The notes under the pieces: generated by a model | The model's database searches: none | What the model was told of the DNA's origin: nothing | The model's input: only the letters and a program-made list of their open reading frames with translations | Shown here: positions 3,645 to 62,620 of the stretch, piece after piece | Numbering within the stretch: the first letter of the stretch is position 1 | Layout of the letters: every line of letters begins with the position of its first letter | Assembly: GCA_049303575.1 (NCBI GenBank) | Contig: JBAQNH010000002.1 | Location: 247,932-311,931, forward strand | Source of the DNA: Microgenomates group bacterium | GTDB lineage: Bacteria > Patescibacteriota > Microgenomatia > UBA1400 > MFAQ01 | Length of the DNA stretch: 64,000 nt | Reading direction: 5' to 3' | Program-made: the position numbers and the translations under genes

Positions 3645-5303
3645 ATGGATTTTAAAAAAACTCCTCTAAAAATTATTCCTTTGGGTGGCGTCGGTGACGT
3701 TACCAAGAATATGTACGTTTACGAATATGGCAACGAACAAATCGTGGTCGACTGTGGCATGGGCTTTCCCAAAGACGATGCCCTCGGTGTCGATGCTGTT
3801 ATTCCGGATATCAGTTATCTCGAGCATAGCGACAAAAAGCTTCATGGCATTGTCCTAACTCATGCTCACCAAGACCACGTTGGTGGTTTACCATACATTC
3901 TTCCCCGCCTTCAAGGCATCGAAGTTTTTGGCAGCAAACTAGCAATCGCCATCGCCGAGATCAAGGTCCGCGAGTTTGGCATTACCAATAAAATGACTCC
4001 GGTTGAAGGCAAGCTAGATCTTGGACCTTTTCATCTGGAATTCATTCACATTACCCATTCCGTCCCCAACTGTTTCCATGTTTTGATCAAAACCCCAGCC
4101 GGTACCGTTTATCATGGTGCTGACTTTAAGTTTGATCTCACTCCCATCGACAATCTTCCTCCAGACATGGGTGCTATGGCTGTTGCCGGAAACAATGGTG
4201 TTGATTTAATGCTTACCGACTGTCTCCGTGTGGAAAAAAATGGCTTCTGCCCTTCAGAACGTTCTCTTCTTACAGCAATTGATAATGAAGTTAGATCCGC
4301 CGAAGGCAAACTCATCTTTACCACTATGTCTTCTTCAATCTCTCGTATTCAGATGGCTATCGATGCTTCAGCTAAATATCATCGTCGTGTTGCTATTGTT
4401 GGGCGTAGTGTAGAACAAAACGTTGAAGCCGCCGCCAAAAATGGCTTTATCAAGATTCCTAAAGGTATCTTCATTAAAAGCCAACAAGTCAGCAGTCTTC
4501 CTGCCAATCAAGTAACCGTGATTGTCTCTGGTTCACAGGGTCAAGTCGGCTCTGCAATGCACAGGCTTGCCAACGATGAACACACCCAGATCAAGCTTAA
4601 AAAAGGCGACAAAGTGGTCATTAGTTCCGATGCTATTCCTGGCAACGAAGGTGATATTTTCGACTTACTAGATACTCTCTATAAGAGAGGTATTGATGTT
4701 AAGTACTCCGGAACCTCCGAGAACCTTCACGTCTCCGGACATGGCTATCGTGGCGACATGATTCTTCTTGCGCGTTTAGTAAGACCAAAAAATATCATCC
4801 CTATCGGCGGTAACCTTCGCCACATGATGATTTATAAGGATCTCGCCAAAGAAATGAACTTTAATCCCGAAAAAGTCTTTGTCCTTTCAGACGGACAATC
4901 AATTCTGCTTGAAAACGGTGTTGTAAAAGAAGGTCCCAAAATCGAAACCAGAAACGTTTATGTCGATGGTTTAGGTATCGGTGACGTTGGCACTGTTGTT
5001 CTCCGTGACCGCCAAGTTATGTCTGCCGATGGAGTTCTCCTCGCAATTGTTCCTATGCGACGCGATAACTCCCAAGTCACTGGTGACATTGAAATCATTT
5101 CCCGTGGTTTTGTTTATCAAAAAGAGTCCCAAGAACTCATTAATGACGCCAGAAAACACGTTTATAGTTGTCTCAAGGATCTCAAAGGTCAAGCCACCGA
5201 CTGGGGATTCATTAGAAAAAAGATAGAAGGGGAATTAGAAAAATTTGCTTTCGAACATACCCAGAGACGTCCTCTCGTTATAGCCATCCTTTTGGAAGTA
5301 TAA
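3645..5303 (+). CDS. rnj: ribonuclease J (metallo-beta-lactamase / beta-CASP)
   Basis: 552 aa; HAHQDHVGG motif, IIPLGGVGDV N-terminus typical of RNase J. Confidence 0.9.
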   Translation: MDFKKTPLKIIPLGGVGDVTKNMYVYEYGNEQIVVDCGMGFPKDDALGVDAVIPDISYLEHSDKKLHGIVLTHAHQDHVGGLPYILPRLQGIEVFGSKLAIAIAEIKVREFGITNKMTPVEGKLDLGPFHLEFIHITHSVPNCFHVLIKTPAGTVYHGADFKFDLTPIDNLPPDMGAMAVAGNNGVDLMLTDCLRVEKNGFCPSERSLLTAIDNEVRSAEGKLIFTTMSSSISRIQMAIDASAKYHRRVAIVGRSVEQNVEAAAKNGFIKIPKGIFIKSQQVSSLPANQVTVIVSGSQGQVGSAMHRLANDEHTQIKLKKGDKVVISSDAIPGNEGDIFDLLDTLYKRGIDVKYSGTSENLHVSGHGYRGDMILLARLVRPKNIIPIGGNLRHMMIYKDLAKEMNFNPEKVFVLSDGQSILLENGVVKEGPKIETRNVYVDGLGIGDVGTVVLRDRQVMSADGVLLAIVPMRRDNSQVTGDIEIISRGFVYQKESQELINDARKHVYSCLKDLKGQATDWGFIRKKIEGELEKFAFEHTQRRPLVIAILLEV

Positions 5304-5304
5304 G

Positions 5305-5889
5305 CTAGTTAAACTTCCGGTCGATTGCCGAAAAAAGATCACTAAATCTATTAAAATTATCTTCGGAAATTGCAAAATCCACAGCAATTTTCGGGATAAT
5401 TGCTTGATGGTCATTAATTTGTCTATCTAAATCAGACAAATATGGGGCAGCCTCTCTTTCTGTTCTTCTTAATATATTTTTTATAATTATTTCTCTGGGT
5501 AAGTCTATCCTTATGGTGAATAACTTGAAATTATTTTTTATGGCAAAGTCTTGTACAAATTCAAATTTTCTATCAATGCTACTATCTAAAATAATAAACC
5601 CGTTACTCTTTGGAAGTTTCTCAAGAAGATATGCCAGGTAACTCAATAATATTTTTTGTTTATTATCATTATTATCAGGAGAAACAAGATTTTCGATAAT
5701 ATCGCGAATATCATCATTATTTATCCTAATTCCCTCATATTTCTCCTCTAATTTCTTGGCAATATAACTTTTTCCTGACCCTGTAATCCCGGAAAATAAC
5801 ACCAGAAACTTTTGATTTTTTTTATCTAAATTCCTTATCTGCTTAACGTGAATATTAAAAATTTGTTCGAGTATAGCTTGTGGGTCCAT
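5305..5889 (-). CDS. P-loop NTPase / predicted kinase (AAA_33 or zeta-toxin-like fold)
   Basis: Walker A GITGSGKS, hhhhD Walker B-like ILDSS; AT-rich; the only minus-strand gene in the first 50 kb. Confidence 0.5.
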   Translation of the reverse strand: MDPQAILEQIFNIHVKQIRNLDKKNQKFLVLFSGITGSGKSYIAKKLEEKYEGIRINNDDIRDIIENLVSPDNNDNKQKILLSYLAYLLEKLPKSNGFIILDSSIDRKFEFVQDFAIKNNFKLFTIRIDLPREIIIKNILRRTEREAAPYLSDLDRQINDHQAIIPKIAVDFAISEDNFNRFSDLFSAIDRKFN

Positions 5890-5929
5890 ATTTACATTAT
5901 AATGATACTCATCATAATAGAACTTATCT

Positions 5930-8041
5930 ATGGCTCGTAAAAAAGGTCGTCGCTCAAAGCCCTACAAACTGAATCTAAAAAAAGACACTGCCAACTCTGT
6001 TATGGCGCTGTTGATTATGGGTACCGGTGGTTTAATTGCTATTTCTTTTTCTCAGCAAGGGGCCTTTCTCACCCAAGTCAATGAAATTGGTCGCAATCTT
6101 TTGGGTTGGCCACTACTTTTAGTCCCCTTTATCTTTGTTGTTGGTGGTCTGCTTCTTACCCATGTCAAACTCGCCATCGCTTCAGCCCACGTTCTTCTTG
6201 GTAGTGTCGTCACCATGATTTCTTTAAGTGGACTTACCGGTTCAGGCAGTATCGGTTCAGGTATTAGAGAATCGATTATTTCTCTTATCTCCACTCCTGG
6301 AGCAATCCTTTTTTTCTTGGTCGGTACAGCCATCGGACTTTTCATTCTTTTTGAAACCTCTATCGAGGATCTCGTTGTCTTTATCCAAGAAAATCTCAAA
6401 AGAGTTGGTGACGCCAGTAGTAAACTCCAAACACTCGGTAAAAAGAACGGCACTGTTTTCGTCAGTAAGCCCGGCTCAGTCAAGATCACTGGCGGGGAAG
6501 ACAATTATGCACCTCCCATCATTCACCAGGAAGACACCAAAAAACCTCCCGTGGTTGGTCAACTGCCCCCCAAGCCCATGCTCGAAGGTGCCACGGCTAC
6601 AATCTGGCAGTATCCTCCAATTAGTCTTCTTTCGGATCAAAAACTCGGCAAAGCCGACCGTGGAGATATCAACAAAAATATTGAGGTCATCCAAAATACT
6701 CTTGAGTCATTTGGTATTCAAGCACACGTTTCTGAGGTTCATAAAGGCCCCGCCGTTACCCAGTATGCTCTGACTATTGCCATGGGTACCAAGTTGTCCA
6801 AAATTAATGCCCTTCAATCTGATTTGGCCCTCGCTCTTTCCGCACCACAAGGGCAAATCCGTATCGAGTCTCCAATCCCTGGTCGAGACTTGGTGGGTAT
6901 CGAAATCCCCAACCGCTCACTGGAATTTGTTTCTCTGAGAGATATGCTCAGTTCGCCTGCCATGCAAAACAACAAGTCAAAAACCATGGTCTCGCTTGGT
7001 TTAGATGTTTCCGGTACTGCTTGTGTTGTGGATATCGCCAAAATGCCTCACATTCTCATCGCTGGTACTACCGGTTCCGGAAAATCGGTTCTTATTAATG
7101 CTTTTATTGCCTCAATTCTTTTTCGAGCTTCCCCCGAAGAAGTCAAATTTATTATGGTTGATCCGAAACGTGTCGAGCTTACTCCTTATAGTGGTATTCC
7201 TCATCTACTTACCGATGTTATCGTCGATGTCGACAAAGTCGTCAACGCTTTGGGTTGGGCTGTAGCCGAAATGGAAAGACGTTATAAAATTTTTCAAGAG
7301 GTTGGTGTCAAAAATATTGCCGGTTACAACGAAAGTAAGGCCTTTCAATCCATGCCTTACATCATCATTGTCATTGACGAGATCGCCGACATTATGATGA
7401 ACAAAAACGCCGGCGAAGTTGAAAATCATATTGTCCGTTTGGCCCAAATGGCTCGTGCTGTTGGTATTCACTTGGTTCTTGCCACCCAACGACCATCCGT
7501 CAACGTCATCACCGGTATTATTAAAGCCAACATTCCCGCCCGTATTGCTTTTCAAGTCACTTCAATGATTGATTCTCGCGTTATTATTGACACCCCGGGT
7601 GCCGAAAAACTACTAGGTAAAGGAGATATGCTTTTTATTCCTCCGGATGTGGCCAAGCCCAAACGTATCCAGGGAGCATTTGTTTCCGAAAAAGAAATTG
7701 CCGATCTTCTCAGGTTTATTCAAAGCATTGGTGTTGAAGCCAAAAGAGATGACACAATTACAAAAAATGTTTCCAAAGGAAGAATTGGAACTAGTGGTCA
7801 GGACATGGGTAATGTAGATGAAAAATTTGAAGAAGCCGCCAGACTCTGTATCGCTGAAGGCAAAGGCTCTGCCTCCCTTCTCCAGCGTCGCCTTGAGGTT
7901 GGCTACGCCAGAGCCGCAAGAATCCTAGATCAACTGGAAAATGCTGGTATTCTTGCCCACGCCGAAGGTAATAAGCCTCGCGAAGTTATTGTTAATAGTT
8001 TTGATGAATACCTGCCCCAAAACGAAGAGCAGGAACAATAA
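5930..8041 (+). CDS. ftsK: DNA translocase FtsK/SpoIIIE
   Basis: N-terminal TM helices, motor domain Walker A GTTGSGKSV, C-terminal gamma wHTH. Confidence 0.9.
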   Translation: MARKKGRRSKPYKLNLKKDTANSVMALLIMGTGGLIAISFSQQGAFLTQVNEIGRNLLGWPLLLVPFIFVVGGLLLTHVKLAIASAHVLLGSVVTMISLSGLTGSGSIGSGIRESIISLISTPGAILFFLVGTAIGLFILFETSIEDLVVFIQENLKRVGDASSKLQTLGKKNGTVFVSKPGSVKITGGEDNYAPPIIHQEDTKKPPVVGQLPPKPMLEGATATIWQYPPISLLSDQKLGKADRGDINKNIEVIQNTLESFGIQAHVSEVHKGPAVTQYALTIAMGTKLSKINALQSDLALALSAPQGQIRIESPIPGRDLVGIEIPNRSLEFVSLRDMLSSPAMQNNKSKTMVSLGLDVSGTACVVDIAKMPHILIAGTTGSGKSVLINAFIASILFRASPEEVKFIMVDPKRVELTPYSGIPHLLTDVIVDVDKVVNALGWAVAEMERRYKIFQEVGVKNIAGYNESKAFQSMPYIIIVIDEIADIMMNKNAGEVENHIVRLAQMARAVGIHLVLATQRPSVNVITGIIKANIPARIAFQVTSMIDSRVIIDTPGAEKLLGKGDMLFIPPDVAKPKRIQGAFVSEKEIADLLRFIQSIGVEAKRDDTITKNVSKGRIGTSGQDMGNVDEKFEEAARLCIAEGKGSASLLQRRLEVGYARAARILDQLENAGILAHAEGNKPREVIVNSFDEYLPQNEEQEQ

Positions 8042-19683: not shown

Positions 19684-22600
19684 ATGAATAACATTGTCGA
19701 TTTCTCAGGTTTACAAATAAGGCTTGCCAGTCCAGATGACATCAAAAAATGGTCTCATGGTTTAGTTACTAAACCGGAAACCATTAATTATCGTACCCAA
19801 AAACCAGAAAAAGATGGTCTTTTCTGTGAAAGAATCTTTGGTCCGGTAAAAGACTGGGAATGTTACTGTGGTAAGTACAAACGTGTTCGTTTCAAGGGCA
19901 TTGTCTGTGACAAGTGTGGTGTTGAAGTTACCCTTAGTCGTGTTCGCCGTGAACGTATGGGTCACATCAACCTCGCCGCTCCTGTTGCTCACGTATGGTT
20001 CTTCAAAGGAGCTCCTTCAAAACTATCATTACTCTTGGACATTTCCCCCAAAGCTCTTACTTCTGTAATTTACTTTAGTAAATTCCTCATCATGTCTATT
20101 GATGAAGAAAAAAGAGAAACTGCTCTAAAAGACATCATCGCTCAAAAGGAAGCTAAGCTCGAAGAAGTCCACTCCAATTTTGATAAACAGATCGAGGAAA
20201 TCAAGAAAGAAGGTCAAAAAGAACTCGCCGAGGTTAAGAAAAAATCTAAAGCCAAAGACGAACGAGAGTTAAAATCGGAAGATCTAAAAGTTGAAGCCAA
20301 ACAAAAAATAGCCAGTCTCAGAGAGCAAATGGTTGTTGAGTTGGCCTTTACTGAAGAAATTTATAGCAAACTTGCCGTTATTATCGAAAGAATTCAGGTC
20401 AACTCACTTCTTTCCGACTCTGAATACGCCAAACTTGCCGAATACAATCTGGTAGATTGGATGACTGCCGGTATGGGTTCCGAAGCAATTTTGGAAGCTC
20501 TCAAGAAAGTTAATCTTGAGGAAATGGCCACTAAGCTCAAGGAAGAATCTCTATCAAACTCCGAAGCCAAACGTCTTCGTGCTACCAAACGTCTTCAAGT
20601 TGTCAGAGGATTACTAGACTCCAAAGTCAAACCTGAATGGATGGTTCTCGAAGTTCTCCCCGTGATACCTCCAGATCTTCGTCCTATGGTTCAGCTTTCT
20701 GGTGGTCGTTTTGCCGCCTCGGATCTCAATGATCTCTATCGCCGTGTAATAAACCGCAACAATCGTTTGAAACACCTTATTGATCTAGGTGCTCCCGAAA
20801 TCATCTTGAGAAACGAAAAACGCATGCTTCAGGAAGCCGTTGACTCCCTTATCGACTCCTCTCAAGCTCGTTCTACTCGAAGATCAAGAACCGGCAAAAC
20901 CCTTAAATCTCTTTCCGACATGCTTCGTGGAAAACAAGGTCGTTTCCGTCAAAATCTTCTCGGAAAACGTGTCGACTACTCAGGACGTAGTGTTATTATC
21001 GTTGGACCAGAGCTCAAACTTAACCAGTGTGGTCTTCCTAAAGACATGGCTCTTGAAATGTTTAAACCCTTCGTGCTTCACGAGATCATCAAACAGGACT
21101 TGGCTCCAAACGTTAAAGCCGCCAAGGCTTTGATCGAAAAACGCCAACCAGAAGTCTTCGATATCCTGGAAAGAATTACTAAAAAGCACCCGATTCTTCT
21201 AAACCGTGCTCCTACACTCCACAAGCTTTCTATTCTTGCTTTCTTACCGGTACTCGTCGACGGTTCCGCTATTCGTTTACACCCAGTTGTCTGTGAAGGT
21301 TTCAACGCTGACTTCGATGGTGACCAGATGGCCGTTCACGTACCTCTAACTAAGAAAGCCATCCGCGAAGCCAAGAAGTTCATGTTGCCTCAGTTCAACC
21401 TTCTCAAACCTTCCTCAGGACAAAGTGTCAACATTCCTTCTCGTAAAGAAATGGCCGTTGGTGTTTACTACCTTACCTCAGTTGACGAAACACTTACTCC
21501 TTACAAATATCCTTTTGGTAGTAAAGCCGAAGCAATCACCGCCTACCAGAACAAAGTTATTGAAGTTCGTCAGCCAATCGATGTCAGACTCGACCCTGAA
21601 AAAATGGAAATGACCAACACTACCGTTGGCCGTATCATCTTCAATGAGATTCTTCCCAAGGAATGGGAATTCCAAAACAAGAGTCTTACTGGAAAAGAAA
21701 TTTCTGCCTTCTTTACTCGCGCTATCAAGACCGTAGACACCAAACGTGTTGTCAAATTGATCGACGCTGTCAAGAGTATTGGTTTTGAGTACGCCACTAT
21801 CAGTAGTTTCTCTTTTGCTATCTCCGATAACGAAGTTTTCCCTCAAAAGGCCGAACTTATTGCCGCCGGAAACAAAAAAGCCGAAGAAATTGAAGAAAAC
21901 TACAAACTAGGGCTCATCACTAACAGTGAAAGAAGCAAACTCACTATCAATATGTGGCGTGAAACCGCCGCTGACCTTGCCGAAAAAACCTGGCAGACTT
22001 TCTCAAAAACTAACCCAATTCGTCTCGTTATTGATTCGGCTTCAGGACGTGTTACCAAAAACTCCATCGAACAGCTCTCTGCTATGCGTGGACTTATTGC
22101 AGATCCTCTAGGTAATCTCATTGAACTTCCTATCAAAGGTAACTTCCGTGAAGGTCTTTCTATCTTCGAGTACGTTACTTCCATCAGAGGTTCTAGAAAA
22201 GGTCTTACCGATACGGCTCTCCGTACTGCAGATGCAGGTTACTTGACTCGCCGCTTGGTAGATGTCAGTCATGACGCTATTATCCGTGCCGAAGAATGTG
22301 GTACTGAAGAGTTCATCACCATCATCGCCGAGGAAAGAGGCAAGATTTTTGGCAAGCGCATTGTTTATCGTTATGCCGTCAAAAAAGTAATCTCTCCTGT
22401 CACTAAAAAAGTTTTAGTCGACGCTGGTGAGCTAATTACCGAAGAAATTGCCGCCGCTATCGAAGCTGCAGGAGTCAAAGAGGTTGATGTTCGATCTCCC
22501 ATCACCTGTAAACTTCGTTTTGGTCTCTGTGCCAAGTGCTATGGTCACAACACAGCCACCAATACCCTCGCCATCATTGGTGATCCTGTTGGTGTTATTG

Positions 22601-23388
22601 CCGCTCAGTCCATTGGTGAACCTGGTACTCAGTTAACTATGCGTACCAAACACTCTGGAGGTGCTGCTGGTGTCGACGTTACCCAGGGTCTTCCTCGCGT
22701 TACCGAGCTTTTGGAAGTTCGTACTCCTAAACTTGTTGCTCCTATTTCCGAAGTATCCGGAAAAGTCAAAGTTGTTGAAACCGAAAACGGCAATCTTATT
22801 ACCGTCACTCCTGGTGGTAAAAAAGATGATCGTAAAGAATATCTCGTTCCTCTGGCTATGTCTCTCAAGGTGGCCGATGGTGACTTGATCTCTGTTGGTA
22901 CTCAACTGGCTTCTGGTGGTGTAGACATTAAGCAGCTCTTAAAGATCAAAGGTCTCAGAGCTACCCAAAACTACCTCATTGGCGAAATTCAGTCCATTTA
23001 CGAGTCACAGGGTATCAGTATTCACGACAAGCACTTTGAGGTTATCCTTCGCAAGATGTGTGACTATGTTCGCATTGACGCCGTTGGTGACACCGCACTT
23101 GTTGCTGGAGATGTTATTAGTCGTGGATCCTACGAAATGGCCAATGAAGCAATCATTGCTCAAGGTGGAGAACCAGCTACCGCTACGAACTTAATTCTAG
23201 GTGCCATTAGAGCCGCTCTTCACACCGATTCCTGGCTCTCTGCCGCTTCTTTCCAAGACACCACTTCCGTATTAACCGACGCTGCTGTTCAAGGCAAGAT
23301 TGATCACCTTATTGGTATGAAGGAAAACGTTATCATTGGTCGCTTGGTTCCTACGAGCAAGTTGAGAGCAAGAATCGAGAATATCTGA
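19684..23388 (+). CDS. rpoC: DNA-directed RNA polymerase beta-prime subunit
   Basis: 1234 aa; zinc finger CYCGKYKRVRFKGIVCDKCG, NADFDGD catalytic motif. Confidence 0.97.
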   Translation: MNNIVDFSGLQIRLASPDDIKKWSHGLVTKPETINYRTQKPEKDGLFCERIFGPVKDWECYCGKYKRVRFKGIVCDKCGVEVTLSRVRRERMGHINLAAPVAHVWFFKGAPSKLSLLLDISPKALTSVIYFSKFLIMSIDEEKRETALKDIIAQKEAKLEEVHSNFDKQIEEIKKEGQKELAEVKKKSKAKDERELKSEDLKVEAKQKIASLREQMVVELAFTEEIYSKLAVIIERIQVNSLLSDSEYAKLAEYNLVDWMTAGMGSEAILEALKKVNLEEMATKLKEESLSNSEAKRLRATKRLQVVRGLLDSKVKPEWMVLEVLPVIPPDLRPMVQLSGGRFAASDLNDLYRRVINRNNRLKHLIDLGAPEIILRNEKRMLQEAVDSLIDSSQARSTRRSRTGKTLKSLSDMLRGKQGRFRQNLLGKRVDYSGRSVIIVGPELKLNQCGLPKDMALEMFKPFVLHEIIKQDLAPNVKAAKALIEKRQPEVFDILERITKKHPILLNRAPTLHKLSILAFLPVLVDGSAIRLHPVVCEGFNADFDGDQMAVHVPLTKKAIREAKKFMLPQFNLLKPSSGQSVNIPSRKEMAVGVYYLTSVDETLTPYKYPFGSKAEAITAYQNKVIEVRQPIDVRLDPEKMEMTNTTVGRIIFNEILPKEWEFQNKSLTGKEISAFFTRAIKTVDTKRVVKLIDAVKSIGFEYATISSFSFAISDNEVFPQKAELIAAGNKKAEEIEENYKLGLITNSERSKLTINMWRETAADLAEKTWQTFSKTNPIRLVIDSASGRVTKNSIEQLSAMRGLIADPLGNLIELPIKGNFREGLSIFEYVTSIRGSRKGLTDTALRTADAGYLTRRLVDVSHDAIIRAEECGTEEFITIIAEERGKIFGKRIVYRYAVKKVISPVTKKVLVDAGELITEEIAAAIEAAGVKEVDVRSPITCKLRFGLCAKCYGHNTATNTLAIIGDPVGVIAAQSIGEPGTQLTMRTKHSGGAAGVDVTQGLPRVTELLEVRTPKLVAPISEVSGKVKVVETENGNLITVTPGGKKDDRKEYLVPLAMSLKVADGDLISVGTQLASGGVDIKQLLKIKGLRATQNYLIGEIQSIYESQGISIHDKHFEVILRKMCDYVRIDAVGDTALVAGDVISRGSYEMANEAIIAQGGEPATATNLILGAIRAALHTDSWLSAASFQDTTSVLTDAAVQGKIDHLIGMKENVIIGRLVPTSKLRARIENI

Positions 23389-23407: not shown

Positions 23408-23824
23408 ATGCCTACAACTAACCAATTAATCAAACACGGCCGCATCACAACTGCGCGCAAAGTGAAAACAACCGCTCTCCGTAAGAGCTTCAACTCTATC
23501 AAACGACGTATGGTCGAGACTCAGTCTCCTCAAAAAGCCGGTGTTTGTCTTCAGGTTAAAACCATGACCCCCAAGAAACCAAACTCTGCTTTGCGTAAGA
23601 TTGCTCGTGTTAGACTATCAAACAAACAAGAAGTCACCGCCTACATCATGGGTGAAGGCCACAACCTAGCCGAACACAGTATCGTTATGATTCGTGGCGG
23701 TCGTGTTCGTGACCTTCCAGGTGTCAAATATCACATCATTCGTGGCAAGCTCGATACCGGTGGTATTGAAAAACGCCGCACCAGTCGTAGTAAATACGGT
23801 ACCAAACGTCCTAGTGCTAAATAA
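23408..23824 (+). CDS. rpsL: 30S ribosomal protein S12
   Basis: [12 protein letters not shown]... [10 protein letters not shown]. Confidence 0.97.
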
Positions 23825-23829
23825 TATAT

Positions 23830-24306
23830 ATGAGATCCAAGAAAACACACGCTAAAAAAATTCAACTTGATCCAATCTATGGAAGCGAGTTGGTTTCTAA
23901 GATTATCAATGGTTGTATGCTCGAAGGTAAAAAATCCGTCGCTGCCAAGCAAATTTATACCGCAATCGATATCATCGGACAGCAAACCGGCAAAAACGGT
24001 CTCGAGTATCTTACCGAAGCAATGGAAAATGTTAAGCCTACTATAGAAGTTCGCTCTCGTCGTGTTGGAGGTGCCTCTTATCAGGTTCCTACCCCCATTC
24101 GCCCCGAACGTCGTGACTCCCTCGCTATTCGTTGGGTATTAAACGCTGCCAAGGCTAGATCAAACAACCCCACGAGAACCTTAGCCGACAAACTCGCCGC
24201 TGAAATTATGGAAGCTCACGAAAACACCGGTTCCGCAATAAAGAAAAAGCTCGACACCCATAAAATGGCTGAGGCTAACAAAGCCTTCGCTCACTTTAGA
24301 TGGTAA
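23830..24306 (+). CDS. rpsG: 30S ribosomal protein S7
   Basis: 158 aa S7 family. Confidence 0.95.
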   Translation: MRSKKTHAKKIQLDPIYGSELVSKIINGCMLEGKKSVAAKQIYTAIDIIGQQTGKNGLEYLTEAMENVKPTIEVRSRRVGGASYQVPTPIRPERRDSLAIRWVLNAAKARSNNPTRTLADKLAAEIMEAHENTGSAIKKKLDTHKMAEANKAFAHFRW

Positions 24307-24330
24307 TAATAAGATTAATAATCTAAAACA

Positions 24331-24357
24331 AAAAAAGCCTCCTCTGGGAGGTTTTTT
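24331..24357 (+). terminator. rho-independent terminator after rpsG
   Basis: A6-GCCTCC-TCT-GGAGGT-T6 hairpin. Confidence 0.6.
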
Positions 24358-24365
24358 GTTGTTTA

Positions 24366-24374
24366 TGGTAGAAT
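24366..24374 (+). promoter_or_regulatory. extended -10 promoter element (TGgTAGAAT) for the small ORF
   Basis: TGnTAGAAT followed by RBS AGGAGG at 24398-24403 and ATG at 24409. Confidence 0.4.
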
Positions 24375-24408
24375 ATTCCAAAATCTTGTACGTTAATAGG
24401 AGGAAAAC

Positions 24409-24669
24409 ATGTGGTGTCCATTTATTGCTGCTGCACTCATCAGCAACGAAGGTAAGAACTCTGTAGAAAGGATTCAAGATACTGCATTTCTCGATTGTCA
24501 GGAAACTAAGTGTCAAATGTGGAATTCACAAACCAAAGACTGTGGTTTAAAACAATCGTCCAACCGAACTCTTGTCGAGATCAAAGACCTTCTTGCTAGT
24601 ATCTCAAGCACCCTTAGTAACATCGGTGATGATGTCACTCGCCAGACAGAAGAATTAAATCATTATTAG
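24409..24669 (+). CDS. hypothetical small Cys-containing protein (86 aa) inserted in the str operon
   Basis: own promoter, RBS and terminator; 4 Cys; no recognisable domain. Confidence 0.45.
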   Translation: MWCPFIAAALISNEGKNSVERIQDTAFLDCQETKCQMWNSQTKDCGLKQSSNRTLVEIKDLLASISSTLSNIGDDVTRQTEELNHY

Positions 24670-24716
24670 AAGGGGAAGGTCCAGTCCACTTCAACCGAAG
24701 ATTGAGTAGTTACGCC

Positions 24717-24744
24717 TAGCGCCCTCACGGGCGCTATTTTATTT
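24717..24744 (+). terminator. rho-independent terminator
   Basis: perfect 8-bp stem TAGCGCCC/GGGCGCTA, loop TCAC, then T-rich tract. Confidence 0.65.
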
Positions 24745-24753
24745 CTTCCTTCT

Positions 24754-26847
24754 GTGTTAATCTACCTCAGCAAAATATTTCTTAAGATGGCCTTAAAAAC
24801 AATCGAAAATATACAATATAACCGTTCGTCTGAGTATGCTCTGGAAAATCTGGATCAACTTCCTGTGGCCAAATTAAGAGAGTACTTAAGAGAAGAAATT
24901 AGACTTCATCCCAATTTTGTTCTCATCGGTGAGACAGGTTCCGGCAAAACCACTTGTCTTCCTCCTTTATTACTCGAGTTAAGAGATGAACTCGGTCTCA
25001 AAGGCAGTATTGCCGTAACCCAGCCCAGAAGAATTGCCACCAAGAGTGTTACTGACCGTGTTGCCGAAATGATGGACTATCCGGTAGGAGACAAGGTTGG
25101 TTACCATATTCGTTTTGAAGATATTACTTCCAAAGACACCGACATCACTTTCATGACCGATGGTGTTCTTCTGCGAAAAATTCAATTTGATCCTCTTCTT
25201 TCTGAGTACTCCATTGTCATGATCGATGAAGCCCATGAGCGTAGTTTAAACATCGACCTCTGTCTTGGTCTTCTAAAAGATGTTAATCAAAGACGTTTTG
25301 AAGCCGGTTTGGACTCTGTCCGCGTTGTTGTCACTTCAGCCACTATCGAAAGAAACCGTTTTGCCGAATACATTGGTTATAAAGACAAAGATAATCTGGT
25401 CGAAATTCCCGGAAAAATGTTTCCAGTAGAGGTTTATTACGAAGATGAAATTCCTTTTAACTACGACTTTACCCAAGGTGCCGCTGAAAAAGTAAAAGCC
25501 ATTGTTGATAGCAATCTTAAAGGCGATATTCTCATTTTTATGCCCGGAAAAAGAGAAATCACCGATACTATTCAAAAAATCGAAGCCAAAATTGGTAATA
25601 ACGGGGTTGAGATTTTTCCACTTCATGCCGAAATGTCTCCCGAAGATCAAGACAAAATATTCACCCCTACCGACAAAAGAAAAATTATTGTCGCCACCAA
25701 CATTGCCGAGACCTCGGTCACAATAGATGGCATTATTCACATTATTGACTCCGGTTATATCAAACAAACCCGTTTTGACCCAAAAACCGGTATTGAACAA
25801 CTGGTTCTCACCGAACACGCCATAAGTGGTCTTGATCAACGCAAGGGTCGTGCCGGTCGCACTGCTCCGGGGTATTGTTATCGATTGTTTACCGAAAGTA
25901 GTCTCAAAAGACGACCTCTTTATCAAACTCCGGAAATTCAGCGTTCTAATTTGTCCCAGATCGTTCTTGCGATGAAGAAAGTCGGTATTGAAAGTATTGA
26001 GAACTTTGATTTTATGGATCACCCAGGTCGCGAAGCAATTACCCAGGCCCTAAACACCCTGTTTACACTAGGTGCCATAGACGGCCACGGCAATATTACC
26101 GAAATCGGTGATTGGTTGGTTGAGCTTGGACTGGAACCACGTTTGGGACGGATGCTCCTCGAGGCCATAAGGCCGGAAATCGACTGTGTCAATGAAATTA
26201 CAATCATTGCCTCTTTCCTCGACGGCAAAAATATCTTCATCAGACCACCGGAAAAAGAGCTGGAACTGGCTGCCGAAAGAGCCCATGCCCAATTTACCCA
26301 TCAAGATGACTCCGATTTCTCCGTCCTTCTTAATATCTGGAAGGCTTACGCGGCTAGTGGTTATAGCGCTGACTGGGCAAAGAAAAATTTTCTAAACGAA
26401 AAAGCTTTGGAAGAAGCCAAAAATGTTCGTTTGGATCTTATCGATGTTCTAGCAACTCATAAAATCATCATTAATCCAAATGCCTCCCCAAAAATAAATA
26501 GAACCGCCATTGGTAAAGCCGTTACCGCCGGTCTTATTGGTAATCTTTTGCAAAAAGTCGATAAATTTACTTTCAAAAAAGTCGATGGCACCAAAGGAAG
26601 TATTTTTATTCATCCCAGTTCTGTTTTGACCTACAACACTTTAAGAAAGGGCTCCTTTATTATTGCCAGTGAAATTTTTATCAACCCCCTTGGTAAAGCC
26701 TTTGCTTGCAACTGTCTGGAAGCAAGACATGAATGGCTCAAAGACTATGCTCCTGAACTTTTGCACCGTCCAGGCAGGCATCATCTAAATCACGAAAATA
26801 AAACCGGTCGATCCAAACACTACTCCCGTCATAATTCGCATCGCTAA
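24754..26847 (+). CDS. DEAH-box ATP-dependent helicase, HrpA/HrpB-like
   Basis: GETGSGKTT Walker A, DEAH box (IDEAHERS), HA2 and OB-like C-terminal region; the start may be the ATG at 24787. Confidence 0.8.
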   Translation: MLIYLSKIFLKMALKTIENIQYNRSSEYALENLDQLPVAKLREYLREEIRLHPNFVLIGETGSGKTTCLPPLLLELRDELGLKGSIAVTQPRRIATKSVTDRVAEMMDYPVGDKVGYHIRFEDITSKDTDITFMTDGVLLRKIQFDPLLSEYSIVMIDEAHERSLNIDLCLGLLKDVNQRRFEAGLDSVRVVVTSATIERNRFAEYIGYKDKDNLVEIPGKMFPVEVYYEDEIPFNYDFTQGAAEKVKAIVDSNLKGDILIFMPGKREITDTIQKIEAKIGNNGVEIFPLHAEMSPEDQDKIFTPTDKRKIIVATNIAETSVTIDGIIHIIDSGYIKQTRFDPKTGIEQLVLTEHAISGLDQRKGRAGRTAPGYCYRLFTESSLKRRPLYQTPEIQRSNLSQIVLAMKKVGIESIENFDFMDHPGREAITQALNTLFTLGAIDGHGNITEIGDWLVELGLEPRLGRMLLEAIRPEIDCVNEITIIASFLDGKNIFIRPPEKELELAAERAHAQFTHQDDSDFSVLLNIWKAYAASGYSADWAKKNFLNEKALEEAKNVRLDLIDVLATHKIIINPNASPKINRTAIGKAVTAGLIGNLLQKVDKFTFKKVDGTKGSIFIHPSSVLTYNTLRKGSFIIASEIFINPLGKAFACNCLEARHEWLKDYAPELLHRPGRHHLNHENKTGRSKHYSRHNSHR

Positions 26848-26967
26848 GCATCATCCTTTTACCCATAACAATCGGATTTATGGTAAAATTAAGCTCGTGA
26901 AATTATGTCCCGAAAAGGATAGGTTTCTTTCGTCTAAATAAATAATTAAACAAAAACAACAAAAAGT

Positions 26968-29091
26968 ATGGCCGCAGCCGTCTCAAAACAAGTTCCTTTA
27001 GAAAATGTTAGAAACATTGGTGTCATTGCTCACATTGACGCCGGTAAAACCACCACCACGGAGCGTATCCTTTTTTACACTGGTAAAACCTACAAGATCG
27101 GTGATATTGACGAAGGAGATACTCAAATGGACTGGATGGACCAAGAGCGCGAACGTGGTATTACCATTGTTTCCGCTGCTACTACCACTTTCTGGACTCC
27201 AGTTTTAAAAGATGCCAATATCAAAGACGACTGTCGTTTTAATATTATCGACACTCCCGGACACGTTGACTTCACCGCCGAAGTTGAGCGCTCTCTCCGC
27301 GTTCTCGATGGAGGTATTATCGTTCTTGATGCTGGTAGCGGTGTTCAATCTCAAACCGAAACCGTCTGGCGCCAAGCCGACAAATACAAAGTTCCTCGTA
27401 TTGCCCTGGTTAACAAAATGGACGTTTTGGGAGCCGATTTTATGGCTACCATTAAAGACGTTCATGAAAAACTCGGTGCCAAAACGGCCATTCTCGCTCT
27501 TCCAATAGGAGTTGAAAATACTTTCAAGGGAATTGCTATGCTTCTCGAGAAAAAAACCATTATCTGGCAGGGCGACGAAACTGGCGCCAAATATGATGTT
27601 ACCGAAGGTTTTTCCGCCGATATGGAAGCAGAATGTGAGAGTGAGAGAGCCAAACTTGTTGAGTCTATCGTTGAAACGGATGAAGCTTTAATGGAAAAAT
27701 ATTTGAATGGTGAAGAACCTTCCATGAAGGATCTTAAAACCGCTCTCCGTAGAGCTACAATTGCCAACGAAATTGTTCCTGTCTTTCCTGGATCATCTTT
27801 AAGAAATAAAGGCGTTCAGCCACTTCTTGATGCCGTTGTTGATTTTCTTCCCTCTCCTCTCGACATTACCGACACTGCCGGAACCAACCCTAAAACTGGT
27901 GAGGTAGAAACCAGAAAACCCAGTCCAGACGAAGCCTTCGTTGGTCTGGCTTTCAAAATTCAAGCCGACCCCCACGTTGGAAAAGTTACTTACGTCCGTC
28001 TCTACTCCGGAAAAATTACTGCTGGTTCCTATGTCTACAACGCCAGTAAATCCGAACGTGAACGCCTCGGTCGTTTAATGCTCATGCACGCCAACACTCG
28101 TGAGGAAATCCAAGAGGCCAGAGCTGGTGAAATTGTCGGTATTGTTGGTCTTAAGGCCACCAAAACAGGGGACACTCTCTGTGAAGAAACCCGACCCATT
28201 GTTCTCGAATCCATTGACTTCCCGGATCCTGTTATCTCACTTGCGATAGAACCAAAAACTAAAGCTGATCAAGAAAAACTCGACATTGCCCTTGGTCGTC
28301 TAGCTGAAGAAGACCCTACTTTTAAGATCAAAACTAATCATGAAACGGGTCAAACCGTCATTGCTGGTATGGGTGAACTTCACTTGGAAATTCTTGTTGA
28401 TCGTCTTCGTCGTGAATTCAAAGTCGATGCTACAACCGGCGCTCCTCAAGTGGCCTATCGAGAAACAATTACCAAAGAAGCTCGTGGTGAAGGTAAATAT
28501 ATTCGTCAGTCAGGTGGCCGTGGTCAGTATGGACACGCTATTTTAGTTGTTACTCCTAAACCTCGTGGTGAAGGATTTACTTTTACCAATAAAATTGTTG
28601 GTGGAACCATTCCTCGCGAGTTCATTAACCCTATTGAAAAAGGTGTTCGTGAAGCTTTAGACAACGGTCTTATCGCTGGTTTCCCTATGGTAGACCTTGA
28701 TGTTGCCGTCGTTGATGGAAGTTTCCACGAAGTCGACTCTTCCGAAATGTCCTTCAAAATTGCCGGAAGTATGGCTCTTCAGGACGCCGTCAAACAAGCT
28801 GGTGCCGTTATTCTCGAACCAATTATGAAAGTCGAAGTTACTACCCCGGAAGCCAACATGGGTGACATTATCGGCGATCTCTCGGCCAGACGTGCCCAAA
28901 TTGGTGGTACTGCTCAGCGTGGCAATGCTCGTGTTATTACCGCTACCGTTCCTCTTTCCGAGCTCTCTGCTTATGCTACGGCCATTCGTTCCCTTACCGC
29001 CGGACGCGCTAGCTACTACATGGAACCAAGTCATTATCAGGACCTTCCAAACAGCATTGCAGCCAAGCTGTTGAAAAATCCCGCACAATAA
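26968..29091 (+). CDS. fusA: elongation factor G
   Basis: AHIDAGKTTTTER, DTPGHVDF; 707 aa. Confidence 0.97.
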   Translation: MAAAVSKQVPLENVRNIGVIAHIDAGKTTTTERILFYTGKTYKIGDIDEGDTQMDWMDQERERGITIVSAATTTFWTPVLKDANIKDDCRFNIIDTPGHVDFTAEVERSLRVLDGGIIVLDAGSGVQSQTETVWRQADKYKVPRIALVNKMDVLGADFMATIKDVHEKLGAKTAILALPIGVENTFKGIAMLLEKKTIIWQGDETGAKYDVTEGFSADMEAECESERAKLVESIVETDEALMEKYLNGEEPSMKDLKTALRRATIANEIVPVFPGSSLRNKGVQPLLDAVVDFLPSPLDITDTAGTNPKTGEVETRKPSPDEAFVGLAFKIQADPHVGKVTYVRLYSGKITAGSYVYNASKSERERLGRLMLMHANTREEIQEARAGEIVGIVGLKATKTGDTLCEETRPIVLESIDFPDPVISLAIEPKTKADQEKLDIALGRLAEEDPTFKIKTNHETGQTVIAGMGELHLEILVDRLRREFKVDATTGAPQVAYRETITKEARGEGKYIRQSGGRGQYGHAILVVTPKPRGEGFTFTNKIVGGTIPREFINPIEKGVREALDNGLIAGFPMVDLDVAVVDGSFHEVDSSEMSFKIAGSMALQDAVKQAGAVILEPIMKVEVTTPEANMGDIIGDLSARRAQIGGTAQRGNARVITATVPLSELSAYATAIRSLTAGRASYYMEPSHYQDLPNSIAAKLLKNPAQ

Positions 29092-29158: not shown

Positions 29159-30334
29159 ATGGCTACATACCAAAGAACCAAACCTCACGTAAATATCGGC
29201 ACCATCGGTCACGTTGACCACGGCAAGACCACTCTTACCGCTGCCATTACTACCACTCTAGCTGCTCAGGGACTAGCGGAAGCTCTTCCTTTTGATCAGA
29301 TTGATAAATCTCCCGAAGAGAGAGAGCGTGGAGTTACCATTAACATTTCCCACGTCCCTTACGAAACAGCAACCCGTCACTACGCTCACATCGACTGTCC
29401 TGGTCACCGCGACTATATCAAAAACATGATCACTGGTGCCGCTCAGATGGATGGCGCTATTTTAGTTGTCGCTGCTACCGACGGTCCTATGCCTCAAACC
29501 AAAGAGCACTTGCTTTTGGCCCACCAAGTAAACGTTCCTCGTTTAGTCGTTGCTTTAAACAAAATTGATGCCGTTTCCGATCCTGAGCTCCTTGAGCTCG
29601 TCGAGATGGAAATAAAAGAACTCTTGGTTAAATATCACTTCGAAGAGGACACCCCAATCGTTCGTGTTTCTGCTCTTAAAGCTCTCGAAGGCGATAAAGA
29701 AGCCCAAGCCGGTATCATGAAACTCATGGACACCGTCGACACTTGGATTCCTACTCCTGTCCGCGAGCTCGACAAACCTTTCCTTATGCCTGTTGAAGAC
29801 GTTTTCTCAATCAAAGGTCGTGGAACAGTTGTTACCGGACGTATCAGTACTGGTATCGTCAAAATCGGTGATGAAATCGAAATCGTTGGTATCAAAGACA
29901 CCACCAAATCTGTTGTTACTGGAGTCGAAATGTTCCACCAACAGCTTGAACAGGGTCAATCAGGTGACAACGTCGGTCTTCTTCTAAGAGGTATCGAAAA
30001 AGAAGATGTCCAAAGAGGTCAAGTTTTGGCCAAACCTGGTTCCATCACTCCTCACACCAAGTTCGAAGCCGAGGCTTATATCCTAGGCAAAGATGAGGGT
30101 GGTCGCCACACTCCTATGTTCACTGGTTACAAACCCCAGTTCTTTATCCGCACCACCGATGTTACCGGAGAGGTTAAACTTCCTGAAGGTGTCGAGATGA
30201 TCATGCCTGGTGACAACGCCAAAATGAACGTCGAACTTATTCAACCAATTGCCATGTCTGAAGGCCAAAACTTCGCTATCCGCGAAGGAGGTCTTACCGT
30301 TGGCGCTGGAGTTATCACTAAGGTTATCGCTTAA
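29159..30334 (+). CDS. tuf: elongation factor Tu
   Basis: [21 protein letters not shown]; 391 aa. Confidence 0.97.
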
Positions 30335-30369: not shown

Positions 30370-30687
30370 TTGAAAATGACAGACCAACCACGTATCCGCG
30401 TCAAACTAAAATCCTTCGATCATCGTGTTATCGATGAGGCTGCTAAGAAAATCATTCAAGCAGCTTTAGTTTCCGGAGCTCAGGTGGTTGGTCCCGTCCC
30501 TCTGCCCACCAAGAAGAAGGTTATTGTCGTTACCTCTTCACCTCATACCGATAAAGATGCTCGCGAACAGTTCGCCATCCTTACTCACAAGAGACTCATC
30601 GACATCGTAAATCCTACCAACAAGACTATTGATTCACTTCAGCACCTTGACCTTCCTGCCGGTGTTGGAATTGAAATCAAGATGTAA
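30370..30687 (+). CDS. rpsJ: 30S ribosomal protein S10
   Basis: [14 protein letters not shown]. Confidence 0.95.
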
Positions 30688-36010: not shown

Positions 36011-36558
36011 CACAAACTCTTAAAGAAAACTATTTAAAGACCATAAGACCGGCTCTGCAAAAAGAACTCGGACTCTCTTCTGTTGAAGCTACTCCAAAAT
36101 TGGAGAAGATCACTCTCAACACCAGTTCCCGTGACTTCAAAACCGACAAAGAACTTCTTACCAAAACAAAAGCCTGGATTGCCACCATTACCGGTCAGAC
36201 TCCAGTCGAAACCAAGGCCAAGCACAGTATCGCTGCCTTCAATCTTCGTGAAGGTGAAGTCGTTGGTGTCAAGGTTACTCTAAGAGGTAATCGCATGTAT
36301 GACTTTTTCCAAAAGTTGACCTCCATCGTACTTCCCCGTATTAAAGACTTCCAAGGTGTTTCCAAGACTACGGTCGACAAAAGTGGTAACTACACTCTCG
36401 GTCTTTCCGAGCAGATTGTGTTCCCCGAGGTCGAATATGATAAAATAGGCAGGATTCAAGGCTTGGAAATTACTATTTCAACGAGTGCCAAAGACGCCGC
36501 CTCCTCCTTAATGCTTCTCACCGCTCTCGGCATGCCTTTTACCAAAGAAGCAAAATAA
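36007..36558 (+). CDS. rplE: 50S ribosomal protein L5
   Basis: 183 aa L5 family. Confidence 0.95.
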
Positions 36559-53403: not shown

Positions 53404-54579
53404 TCAGACTCTCTTTCGCTCTCCCCTGGAAATGAAGTAAATGCCCAAACCTAAAAGCGTTCCCACTAGAACACTCCAATAATTATTATTACTCTCTCCA
53501 CCAGTCCCCGCATTAGGTAATCTTGGTCCTCCCACAAGAACTGCGGCTTCAAAAGTTCCAATCTGACACTCATTTCTGGCGGCCACTTGCACCCAGATTG
53601 GTTGGTTTGCCGGGAGGGCATTAATCGTCGTTGAAAATCCCGTCACATCCACGTTGTAAATCAAATTATCCTTTGTCGTTCCATAACGGACAATAAAATC
53701 ATTCGTTCCAGAGTAAGGTCCCCAGCTAATATAAATACTATCCGCATCCACTCTTCTTGAATCAATTATGTTTGGTGCAATAACTCCGAGATCTATAGTT
53801 GGACAAAATGGATTTGGAGCGCTATTGTCACCGATTGATGATCCAACTGAAGATGTCGTTGTGGTTGAAGCGGTACAGGTTGGTCCACTTATTGTATTGC
53901 CGTCCAGTGTCACTGTACCTGCATCTTGGACTAAGAGACGACCATTCAGAGTCGCACCTGTATTCATAGCATTTACGCCGTTAAGAGCCAATATATTTCC
54001 TATAAACGAAGTGGTTGTGCCAAGGGTTACTGAGCTACCAACTCTCCACCATACATTGCAAGGGTCACCACCGGTAACAGACGAACCGGACGAGGTGATC
54101 AGCGTCGATACTGTTTTAAAAATCCAAACCCCCGACCCTGCAAGAGTTAGATTTCCGGAAAGTGAGAAACTACTTGTTGAACAATAAACGCCTGGACTAA
54201 GTGGAGAAATCAAGGTTAAATCTTGAGCCCCATATGTTTGATCACATGTTTGGTCTAATGTACCGAAAGCTGTGAGATTGTCTGCTTGTGCCGCTATTGC
54301 GCTTGCATCATTGTTGTGCAGATAAACTGCATTATTTCCACCGGCTATTCCCGGAGGGAAGCCTGTTAATGACGTTCCTGAGCTGACTCCAACATTTCCG
54401 GTTGTTGTTGTCGAACCGGTATTCGTCACCGCCTGTCCTCCAAGAACGGAATAGCTTGATGCACCCACTAGTATTGGTGAGGTTGCTGCATACACCGGTG
54501 TCGCCAAGAAAAAAAATAAAGCAGGGATAAAAATCTGCACCAAACTCAACCCAAAAGAAAAAACTCTACCTTTTTTCAT
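53404..54579 (-). CDS. secreted surface protein: signal peptide, DUF3494 ice-binding-like domain, FN3-like domain, C-terminal LPNAG sorting signal
   Basis: signal peptide ending VYA; TGxT/GxS-rich DUF3494-like N-terminal region (VTGFPPGI); C-terminus LPNAG + hydrophobic stretch + RGERKRV. Confidence 0.6.
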   Translation of the reverse strand: MKKGRVFSFGLSLVQIFIPALFFFLATPVYAATSPILVGASSYSVLGGQAVTNTGSTTTTGNVGVSSGTSLTGFPPGIAGGNNAVYLHNNDASAIAAQADNLTAFGTLDQTCDQTYGAQDLTLISPLSPGVYCSTSSFSLSGNLTLAGSGVWIFKTVSTLITSSGSSVTGGDPCNVWWRVGSSVTLGTTTSFIGNILALNGVNAMNTGATLNGRLLVQDAGTVTLDGNTISGPTCTASTTTTSSVGSSIGDNSAPNPFCPTIDLGVIAPNIIDSRRVDADSIYISWGPYSGTNDFIVRYGTTKDNLIYNVDVTGFSTTINALPANQPIWVQVAARNECQIGTFEAAVLVGGPRLPNAGTGGESNNNYWSVLVGTLLGLGIYFISRGERKRV

Positions 54580-54685: not shown

Positions 54686-54759
54686 TGGTCGGGGTGTGGA
54701 GAGTTGAACTCCAGCCGTGCGGCCCCCAGCCGCAAATACTACCGTTATACTACACCCCG
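54686..54759 (-). tRNA. tRNA-Pro (anticodon GGG)
   Basis: manual fold: acceptor CGGGGTG/CACCCCG, anticodon stem TGCGG/CCGCA, loop CTGGGGG, T-arm TGGAG-TTCAACT-CTCCA, encoded CCA. Confidence 0.8.
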
Positions 54760-62294: not shown

Positions 62295-62620
62295 TTCGGG
62301 ACTCCCGGGTCATAGTAAGCCGGATTCTGTCTAGGAGGAACATCTATCTAATGCTCGAGACTTCTGGGATGGAAAAGATACCTTAATCCCAATTCGTCGA
62401 TTGCAGCGGGGCGGGTTACCACTTTCCAAAAATTACTTCTTGGAAATCTCTTGTAACCAAGAGCGTTTCACCTTTATTCGTCTCTGTGGCCCTATCGCGC
62501 CTCTCGAGTCGCCTCGAGAAGAACCAGGTTTCCCTGGCCACCCTATCTTTTAGCTGTCCGGACTTTCCTCCCTACCTTGCGGCAGGGCGTTCCTCACCAG
62601 CACCCGGGAGTACTACTATT
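62295..62620 (-). ncRNA. rnpB: RNase P RNA, bacterial type A (compact)
   Basis: on the minus strand: P4 5' strand GGAGGAAAGUCCGG (complement of 62558-62571), 3' ACAGAAUCCGGCUUAC (complement of ~62312-62327), P1 pairing GUACUCCCGGG / CCCGGGAGUC at both ends, GGUGAAA in the P10-P11 region. Confidence 0.85.

Follow-up and report, generated by a model that had tools for sequence, protein, structure and literature searches.

An accessory cysteine-rich gene and a core-only DEAH/RHA helicase gene between rpsG and fusA in the str cluster of a Microgenomates group bacterium

In Escherichia coli and most other bacteria, the genes rpsL, rpsG, fusA, and tufA follow one another without interruption as the str operon. 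In the 64,000-nucleotide stretch of a Microgenomates group bacterium analysed here (GenBank assembly GCA_049303575.1, contig JBAQNH010000002.1, positions 247,932–311,931, forward strand; hereafter ‘the window’), the same four genes keep this order and orientation within the usual rpoB-rpoC-str-S10-spc supercluster, on the + strand, but the cluster is no longer contiguous: rpsG and fusA lie 2.66 kb apart, with two genes, two terminators, and three promoter-like motifs between them. A first-pass annotation of this DNA had described the str order as interrupted by two separately signalled genes, and both the open reading frames (ORFs) and the signals bear that description out. Within the searchable literature, we found no description of such an interruption. 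What, then, are these genes, how long have they been there, and does their place among genes for translation say anything about what they do?

We consider it probable that the str junction of these Collierbacteria-like bacteria carries two long-standing extra transcription units, namely an accessory gene for a small four-cysteine protein and a gene for a core-only helicase, and that the junction behaves as an exchangeable cassette. The order is rpsL-rpsG, a terminator, a promoter, ribosome-binding site (RBS), 86-amino-acid (aa) ORF, and second terminator, the DEAH helicase gene, and fusA-tuf. The closest database proteins belong to a metagenome-assembled genome labelled ‘Microgenomates group bacterium’, and relatives are labelled Candidatus Collierbacteria.

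The helicase and its relatives

The larger gene (24787–26847, + strand) encodes a DEAH/RHA helicase of 686 aa, as placed by the ORF list and the N-termini of homologues; a start at ATG 24787 agrees with the NCBI protein (100% identity and coverage) and with the N-termini of all relatives. The 697 aa given in the first-pass annotation proved wrong. That length corresponds to a start at GTG 24754, which we rejected, as this codon sits within a conserved motif, TGTGTTAATCT, and the homologues begin at the ATG. The protein contains the Pfam domains DEAD, Helicase_C, HA2_N, HA2_C, and OB_NTP_bind, the last three of which (PF04408, PF21010, and PF07717, respectively, the latter being the OB fold) all exceed their gathering cut-offs, and it is laid out as RecA1, RecA2, winged helix, ratchet, and OB, followed by a 25-aa basic tail rich in His and Arg. 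Motifs I, II, III, V, and VI are present as GETGSGKT, DEAH, SAT, TNIAETS, and QRKGRAGR, and their defining residues are invariant or nearly so among 20 helicase homologues (motif VI as QRxGRAGR). The ratio of nonsynonymous to synonymous substitution rates (dN/dS) is 0.14, i.e. the gene is under purifying selection. Judged by these features, the product is a complete DEAH/RHA core with intact catalytic motifs.

The helicase had been called HrpA/HrpB-like, and HrpA-like it is, in the sense of a DEAH/RHA protein sharing the HrpA core; membership of either family in the strict sense does not hold. The match to the HrpA model TIGR01967 covers model positions 49–690 of 1284 (E = 9e-145) and scores 484 bits against a cut-off of 722.75, and the HrpA equivalog model PRK11131 scores 421.7 bits against a cut-off of 1400. 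The match to HrpB (TIGR01970) reaches 364 bits against a cut-off of 546.15 and covers only positions 1–468 of 825. Pfam gave no match C-terminal of the OB fold, where HrpA has its DUF3418 region. Compared with E. coli HrpA (TIGR01967; PDB 6ZWW and 9GGR), the window protein shares the RecA1-RecA2-winged helix-ratchet-OB core with all ATPase and helicase motifs intact, but it is about half as long, has no counterpart of HrpA residues ~700–1300 (the second helical bundle and the DUF3418 region with its alpha+beta and Hook domains), and is encoded in the str cluster, whereas hrpA stands alone. Because it falls below both equivalog cut-offs and is without the ribosome-binding C-terminal region of HrpA, we classify it, on sequence grounds, as neither HrpA nor HrpB proper. 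That region matters in E. coli, where HrpA splits collided ribosomes as a rescue factor and residues 784–1300 are required for ribosome binding and splitting; HrpA(1–783) retains helicase activity but neither binds nor splits collided ribosomes and does not complement a deletion strain (PMC11419001).

Among solved structures, the best matches are eukaryotic: DHX8 (414 bits) and DHX15 (405 bits) precede E. coli HrpA (342 bits) and HrpB (234 bits). DHX8/Prp22, DHX15/Prp43, Prp16, and Prp2 (383–414 bits) align end to end over residues 17–675, OB included, and DHX8/DHX15-type cores are similar in size to the window helicase (about 650–690 aa); the HrpA alignment spans residues 22–607, and the HrpB chains only 23–462. 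Unlike these eukaryotic helicases, the window protein is bacterial and has no N-terminal extension, and the small protein encoded beside it, being without a glycine-rich motif, is not identifiable as a G-patch partner; similarity of the core is silent on substrate. Searched with the PADLOC models for anti-phage defence, the locus gave only weak P-loop and helicase-motif matches (E at least 0.0015).

Other Patescibacteria have longer or split members of the same family, 40–56% identical to the window helicase, in which a C-terminal extension (1000–1200 aa in total) or a separate gene for a ~700-aa protein (cluster c27) is present, usually with a further gene (cluster c3) upstream; the window has neither extension nor neighbour. 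The c3 product, a protein of ~200 aa without a Pfam match, is encoded 5' of the helicase gene on the same strand at eleven loci of these more distant relatives (L012–L019, L021, L023, and L030; such designations are our own handles for related loci). At L012–L014, the c27 gene lies 3' of the helicase gene, and its product is homologous to the C-terminal extension of the 1000–1200-aa helicases of the Candidate Phyla Radiation (CPR), so that the arrangement looks like a split-gene version of the longer helicase. No homologue of c3 or c27 was found in the 64-kb window, and neither occurs in the helicase clade to which the window belongs.

Conservation and exchange at the junction

The order rpsG-(slot)-helicase-fusA, in which the slot is the space that the small gene occupies in the window, recurs in at least 11 related lineages with helicase identities of 61–100%. 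The loci concerned, which come from independent assemblies and samples, are those of the window, L001–L004/L093, L005, L006, L007, L008/L094, L009, L087, L089, L092, L095, and P0024. At helicase identities of 67% or more, the order extends to tuf in every readable locus, as it also does in L092 at 61%. A neighbour-joining tree gathers the helicases of str context into a single clade plus L092. A metagenome scan with the helicase as query returned two loci only. The first-pass annotation had considered a strain-specific acquisition; comparison across related CPR genomes instead finds the insertion in many relatives, and from this distribution we judge it to be old and clade-specific.

The flanking genes were all placed from the ORF list and lie on the + strand: rpoC (19684–23388), rpsL (23408–23824) and rpsG (23830–24306) as the upstream half of the str cluster, fusA (26968–29091) and tuf (29159–30334) as its downstream half, and rpsJ (30370–30687) thereafter. 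RpsL and RpsG share 97–100% amino-acid identity with their relatives, and their orthologues in related loci carry the Pfam S12 and S7 domains; Pfam annotation of the orthologues likewise supports the assignment of fusA and tuf. A 391-aa ORF at 53404–54579 (− strand) was considered as a second copy of tuf and rejected, its sequence being unrelated.

Elsewhere, the helicase keeps other company. It follows rplS directly in L088 (3-nt gap), and rplS also precedes it in L010; its neighbours are unrelated genes in L091 (ABC transporters and an M50-like peptidase) and in L011 (others). Both helicase junctions accept further insertions, namely the slot genes of the P0024 locus and, in L095, an unannotated 142-aa ORF (7613–8041) between the helicase gene and fusA. 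At two loci, genes are disrupted: in L005 (2695–4761), the helicase gene is split into ORFs of 378 aa and 294 aa, and in L092 (3242–3631 and 6186–8310), rpsG is truncated and fusA is split. These disruptions may be frameshifts caused by assembly errors or real pseudogenes.

Old as the insertion appears, the helicase allele has not always descended with its flanks. The window, L089, and L001 are all equally far from one another, with proportions of synonymous differences (pS) of 0.28–0.31 in rpoC (99% amino-acid identity) and 0.27–0.34 in fusA. Between the helicase genes (window 24787–26847, L001 6386–8449, and L089 2711–4762), pS is 0.27 for the window and L089 (96% identity), but 0.62 for the window and L001 and 0.66 for L089 and L001 (73–74% identity). 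The divergence of the L001 helicase matches that of lineages with an rpoC pS of 0.55–0.66. DNA identity drops sharply from ~93% to 68–80% within the helicase gene and recovers as sharply, to 94%, right after its stop codon (block from 26906), and helicase identities are incongruent with flank identities across loci. Codon bias cannot explain the high synonymous divergence of the helicase, because that between the window and L089 (0.27) equals the level of the flanks. The pattern points firmly to replacement of the helicase allele by recombination in one lineage. The DNA of rpsG and fusA is 82–93% identical across these lineages, and the two genes likely act as homology arms for the DNA that they enclose, which would give the exchange a mechanical cause. 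Composition carries no strong signal of foreign DNA at the helicase, the GC content of which is slightly lower (about 42% vs 45%).

The small gene and its slot

The 86-aa ORF (24409–24669, + strand; ORF list) sits in a compact frame of signals, and what the first-pass annotation had reported here (a terminator after rpsG, four cysteines, a strong RBS, and a terminator of its own with an 8-bp stem) was recovered in full. The intrinsic terminator after rpsG (24332–24357, + strand) reads GCCTCC-TCTG-GGAGG and then a T run, forms 11 pairs, and folds at −17.8 kcal/mol (z = −4.9); a hairpin and T run with differing stem sequences are kept in the relatives L001, L005, L006, L007, L008, and L087. Behind it, a pattern search found an extended −10 motif, TATGGTAGAAT (24364–24374, + strand), which appears in relatives as TATGGTAGAAT, TATGATATAAT, or TATGTTATAAT and which we take as the candidate promoter of the small ORF; the search gave two matches against 0.1 expected. 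A Shine-Dalgarno sequence, AGGAGG (24398–24403, + strand), lies 5 nt upstream of the ATG and is invariant in the slot alignment. The ORF is followed by a terminator (24717–24736, + strand), TAGCGCCC-TCAC-GGGCGCTA and then TTTTATTT, with a stem of 8 bp including six G-C pairs, a T run on its 3' side, and a folding energy of −15.3 kcal/mol (z = −3.5); it is conserved in L001, L005, L006, L008, L087, and L095. Minus-strand ORFs at 24181–24516 and 25336–26022, which overlap coding regions and the terminator, were treated as shadow ORFs, no search for homologues of them having been made.

The cysteines of the predicted protein occupy positions 3, 30, 35, and 45. Its N-terminal domain runs C3-P4 ... 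C30-x4-C35-Q-M-W38 ... D-C45-G-L-K, and a long C-terminal helix (residues ~51–84) follows. The absence of a recognisable domain, as first reported, was borne out, since the ORF and its family had no significant match in Pfam, NCBIfam, PHROGs, PADLOC, or PDB sequences. The protein is, however, not the orphan it had been called: it has four direct homologues, all in the same slot between rpsG and the helicase gene, and a profile search of 1.84 billion cluster representatives returned 34 clusters, one being a false positive (a eukaryotic zinc finger), i.e. a family of ~33. Among 36 aligned members, C30, C35, W38, C45, and G46 are invariant and C3-P4 nearly so; the core is C-x4-C-x2-W-x6-CG with an N-terminal CP, and most members read CP-x~25-C-x4-CQ[ML]W-x7-DCGLK. 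An AlphaFold2 model built from 36 sequences (predicted local distance difference test score 83) has two short helices, a small hairpin, and the long C-terminal helix. Neither the two CxxC or CxxH knuckles nor the matching fold of a Cys4 zinc ribbon or zinc knuckle was found in the protein. The cysteine domain probably binds metal.

Of the 36 aligned members, 10 have a second module, which consists of a linker rich in Pro, Glu, and Ser and of a terminal [SDC][ED]PE just before the stop codon. The slot differs widely from locus to locus. Window and L001 have the cysteine domain and helix, L005 has a cysteine-domain ORF plus a separate tail ORF, L006 and L095 have the cysteine domain fused to the tail, L008/L094, L087, and L092 have the tail module only, and L007, L009, and L089 have no ORF, while the P0024 locus (JGI 3300075153) has a DUF559/MTES_1575 endonuclease-like gene plus two small ORFs. 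Two comparisons are the most telling. L006 is 97–100% identical to the window in DNA elsewhere and 49–73% identical in the slot, i.e. its ORF has been replaced, and L089, whose helicase is 96% identical, has cleanly lost the coding part of the small ORF, leaving AGGAGG and a decaying terminator behind. Among close strains, the small gene can be cut short, split, replaced, or missing altogether.

Such turnover invites the suspicion that the ORF is no gene at all and that the unit makes a small non-coding RNA or is a remnant. Its lack of an annotated family and its deletion in a near-identical strain would fit, but a strong and conserved RBS, a dN/dS of 0.18 (against L001), 33 related clusters with invariant Cys, Trp, and Gly residues, and a confident AlphaFold2 model all speak for a protein. 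An Rfam search of 24250–27050 (E ≤ 5) gave chance-level matches only, with no known riboswitch, leader, or small RNA. We regard the non-coding explanation as extremely improbable; with four invariant cysteines and that dN/dS, the doubt about conservation that the first-pass annotation had attached to the ORF falls away. By these signatures, it is a real gene of an undescribed family, dispensable and accessory to its hosts.

The unit resembles phage ‘moron’ cassettes in being an autonomous promoter-ORF-terminator block, variably present in near-identical strains and with a distant homologue on a viral contig. That homologue, P0161 (66 aa; 2934–3134 in L097/L101, IMGVR_UViG_3300001533_000754), lies on a 32-kb contig listed as viral by IMG/VR, in a run of small co-directional genes that includes SSB, Cpn10, DnaA_C, YopX, and PAPS-reductase, with no helicase nearby. 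Unlike morons, the unit has a fixed place in the chromosome of many lineages and does not lie in a prophage, and it has no match in GenBank phages or PHROGs, the former searched by tblastn. Within IMG/VR, a stricter cysteine-motif pattern had no match, and the P0161 contig is the sole one that IMG/VR counts as viral; two matches to a degenerate CQMW...DCG pattern, inside tail genes, were dismissed as chance.

A different role can be imagined from the tail module, that of an arrest peptide or regulatory leader, in which pausing at P-S-E-P-E-stop would cover the 5' arm of the terminator, cause read-through, and couple helicase synthesis to stalling. At the readable loci, the codons of S-E-P-E vary only synonymously, so that the motif is conserved as peptide, and at seven loci the terminator stem begins 5–10 nt past the stop codon; the peptides are otherwise divergent and rich in Pro, Glu, and Ser, and stalled, collided ribosomes are the target of E. 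coli HrpA. The window copy, by contrast, is without the SEPE tail and stops 47 nt ahead of the terminator, so that the attenuator geometry seen in relatives is absent here. Furthermore, the helicase has an invariant promoter motif of its own 3' of that terminator and is kept in strains without any small ORF, a folded and conserved cysteine domain is unexpected in a mere leader, and terminators near stop codons are common in ordinary genes. A leader function is, in our view, very improbable.

Might the small protein instead work together with the helicase, adapting, activating, or inhibiting it in place of the missing C-terminal region, in the manner of a G-patch protein? Every member whose context in a cellular genome is readable sits directly upstream of a helicase, the helicase itself has its nearest sequence matches in the DHX8, DHX15, and Prp43 cores, which depend on cofactors, and in family members a small folded domain occurs together with a disordered linker and a short C-terminal motif that is conserved. 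Yet the family alignment contains no G-patch-like glycine motif, close strains with an intact helicase have lost the gene or carry a truncated copy, the two genes appear to be separately transcribed, the distant member on the predicted phage contig has no helicase near it, and for most members, which lie on short contigs, mostly of less than 2 kb, the context is unreadable. We consider partnership quite improbable. The broader proposal, that small protein and helicase are one module of the translation cluster, the former targeting or regulating the helicase or tuning its expression through pausing at PSEPE-stop, strikes us as improbable; if it were true, the phage-borne homologue and the divergence and exchange of helicase alleles would reflect conflict over the module. 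In this window, without a PSEPE tail and with a distant stop codon, the ideas of a partner and of a stalling leader find little support.

Transcription, function, and the meaning of the location

How the helicase is transcribed bears directly on whether its location matters. An extended −10-like motif, TGTGTTAATCT (24753–24763, + strand; the motif that contains GTG 24754), has core columns that form the sole invariant block 5' of the helicase gene in an alignment of eight loci, and it is likely the helicase promoter; the leader that follows is short and has no Shine-Dalgarno sequence. A third motif of this kind, TATGGTAAAAT (26879–26889, + strand), precedes fusA-tuf and is conserved as TRTGGTAnAAT in seven of seven aligned loci, which points to a conserved promoter of fusA's own. 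All three units thus share the pattern TRTGnTAnnnT (TATGGTAGAAT, TGTGTTAATCT, and TATGGTAAAAT). A third and only other exact match to TRTGnTAnAAT in the window, TATGATAAAAT at 36436–36446 (+ strand), lies inside a run of ribosomal-protein genes.

The 5' leader of fusA contains, shortly past the promoter motif, a conserved hairpin followed by TTTCTTTCGTC (26899–26935, + strand; aligned in the window, L001, L006–L009, and L087). Its stem varies with compensation across lineages (TGTCC/GGATA, GGTCC/GGACT, and CTGCCC/GGGCAG), and TTTnTTTCGTC is conserved on its 3' side; judged by energy alone, the weak fold (−7.9 kcal/mol, z = −0.8) is not significant. The hairpin may serve as an attenuator or bind a protein. 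Compared with the canonical operon, then, the cluster is split by two units and has a terminator after rpsG and a dedicated fusA promoter and leader. Between the helicase stop codon and fusA, a terminator scan and folding found no terminator-like site, and because of this, helicase transcripts should extend into fusA-tuf, as they probably do. The earlier description of a helicase embedded in a translation-factor operon therefore stands as regards its place in the cluster; upstream, a terminator and its own extended −10 motif set it apart, and co-transcription is probable only downstream.

We picture the junction as follows. The first unit would be a compact promoter-RBS-ORF-terminator cassette for a four-cysteine protein, the window copy having lost its PE tail. 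The second would be a catalytically intact, core-only HrpA-type helicase with a weak extended −10 promoter of its own, the transcripts of which would run on into fusA-tuf, itself also served by its own promoter. Homologous recombination would swap helicase and small-ORF alleles between lineages. Like its relatives, the helicase would be an ATP-driven 3'-to-5' RNA translocase, presumably acting on ribosome-associated RNA, and since the collision-sensing C-terminal region of HrpA is missing, it would have to be targeted otherwise than HrpA. Its substrate and role we infer from its neighbourhood and its relatives, and a part in ribosome function or RNA remodelling, as the first-pass annotation had suggested, is plausible by analogy with HrpA on collided ribosomes and Prp43 and Dhr1 on pre-ribosomes.

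The alternative is that the location is incidental: the rpsG/fusA boundary would be a permissive, recombination-prone gap, occupied by an unrelated accessory gene and by a helicase of general RNA metabolism, active in mRNA decay or processing or on structured RNA and without a particular bond to the ribosome. That terminators and separate promoters bracket the units, that the same helicase clade occurs in the unrelated contexts of L091 and L011, that other insertions are tolerated (DUF559 and small ORFs in P0024, the 142-aa ORF in L095), and that the helicase is without a ribosome-binding C-terminal region are all consistent with this explanation. What it leaves unexplained is the retention of the helicase next to ribosomal-protein genes in two arrangements independent of each other (at rpsG/fusA and after rplS), the persistence of the str position down to 61% helicase identity, the lack of a terminator before fusA-tuf, and the work of the characterised relatives HrpA, Prp43, and Dhr1 on ribosomes or pre-ribosomes. 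We think an incidental location unlikely, though it is the rival to be taken most seriously.

Several further points weigh against our preferred account of two long-standing units with a ribosome-linked helicase. Because HrpA(1–783) can neither bind nor split ribosomes (PMC11419001), a core-only helicase cannot be assumed to perform ribosome rescue. A ribosomal-protein neighbourhood is not obligatory for the helicase, because the same protein adjoins unrelated genes in L091 and L011, and in the str cluster the upstream terminator and putative promoter insulate it from rpsL-rpsG. The promoters, terminators, and read-through are themselves read from sequence, and a generic sigma-70 scan was not enriched over shuffles. 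The helicase tree was built by plain neighbour joining and gives no support values. As regards the small protein, metal binding is putative, and a fold search with the AlphaFold2 model matched no known fold.

Beyond the str junction, the window holds few RNA genes: a single tRNA-Pro(GGG) (54686–54759, − strand) and a bacterial class A RNase P RNA (62300–62608, − strand; a score of 110 bits, slightly over the gathering threshold of 100) are the sole ones detected in 64 kb, RNase P being the sole Rfam match over the whole window at gathering thresholds. Positions 5001–6000 have a GC content of 34.5% against a background of ~44%, which coincides with a 194-aa minus-strand ORF (5305–5889) amid plus-strand genes.

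The genomes of CPR bacteria are minimal and their ribosomes unusual; to our knowledge, few of their lineage-specific translation-associated factors have been characterised. The parts found at this junction are of known kinds; their arrangement and the small-protein family are new. If the helicase is not linked to translation, the finding shrinks to a clade-specific variant of gene order. In either case, the exchange of DNA between ultra-conserved genes calls for caution in using this region as a block of phylogenetic markers, and the adjacent cysteine-rich protein defines a family without Pfam, NCBIfam, or PHROG annotation. The helicase, finally, amounts to a natural truncation experiment: a conserved, core-only protein of the HrpA type would either do something other than HrpA or be targeted differently.

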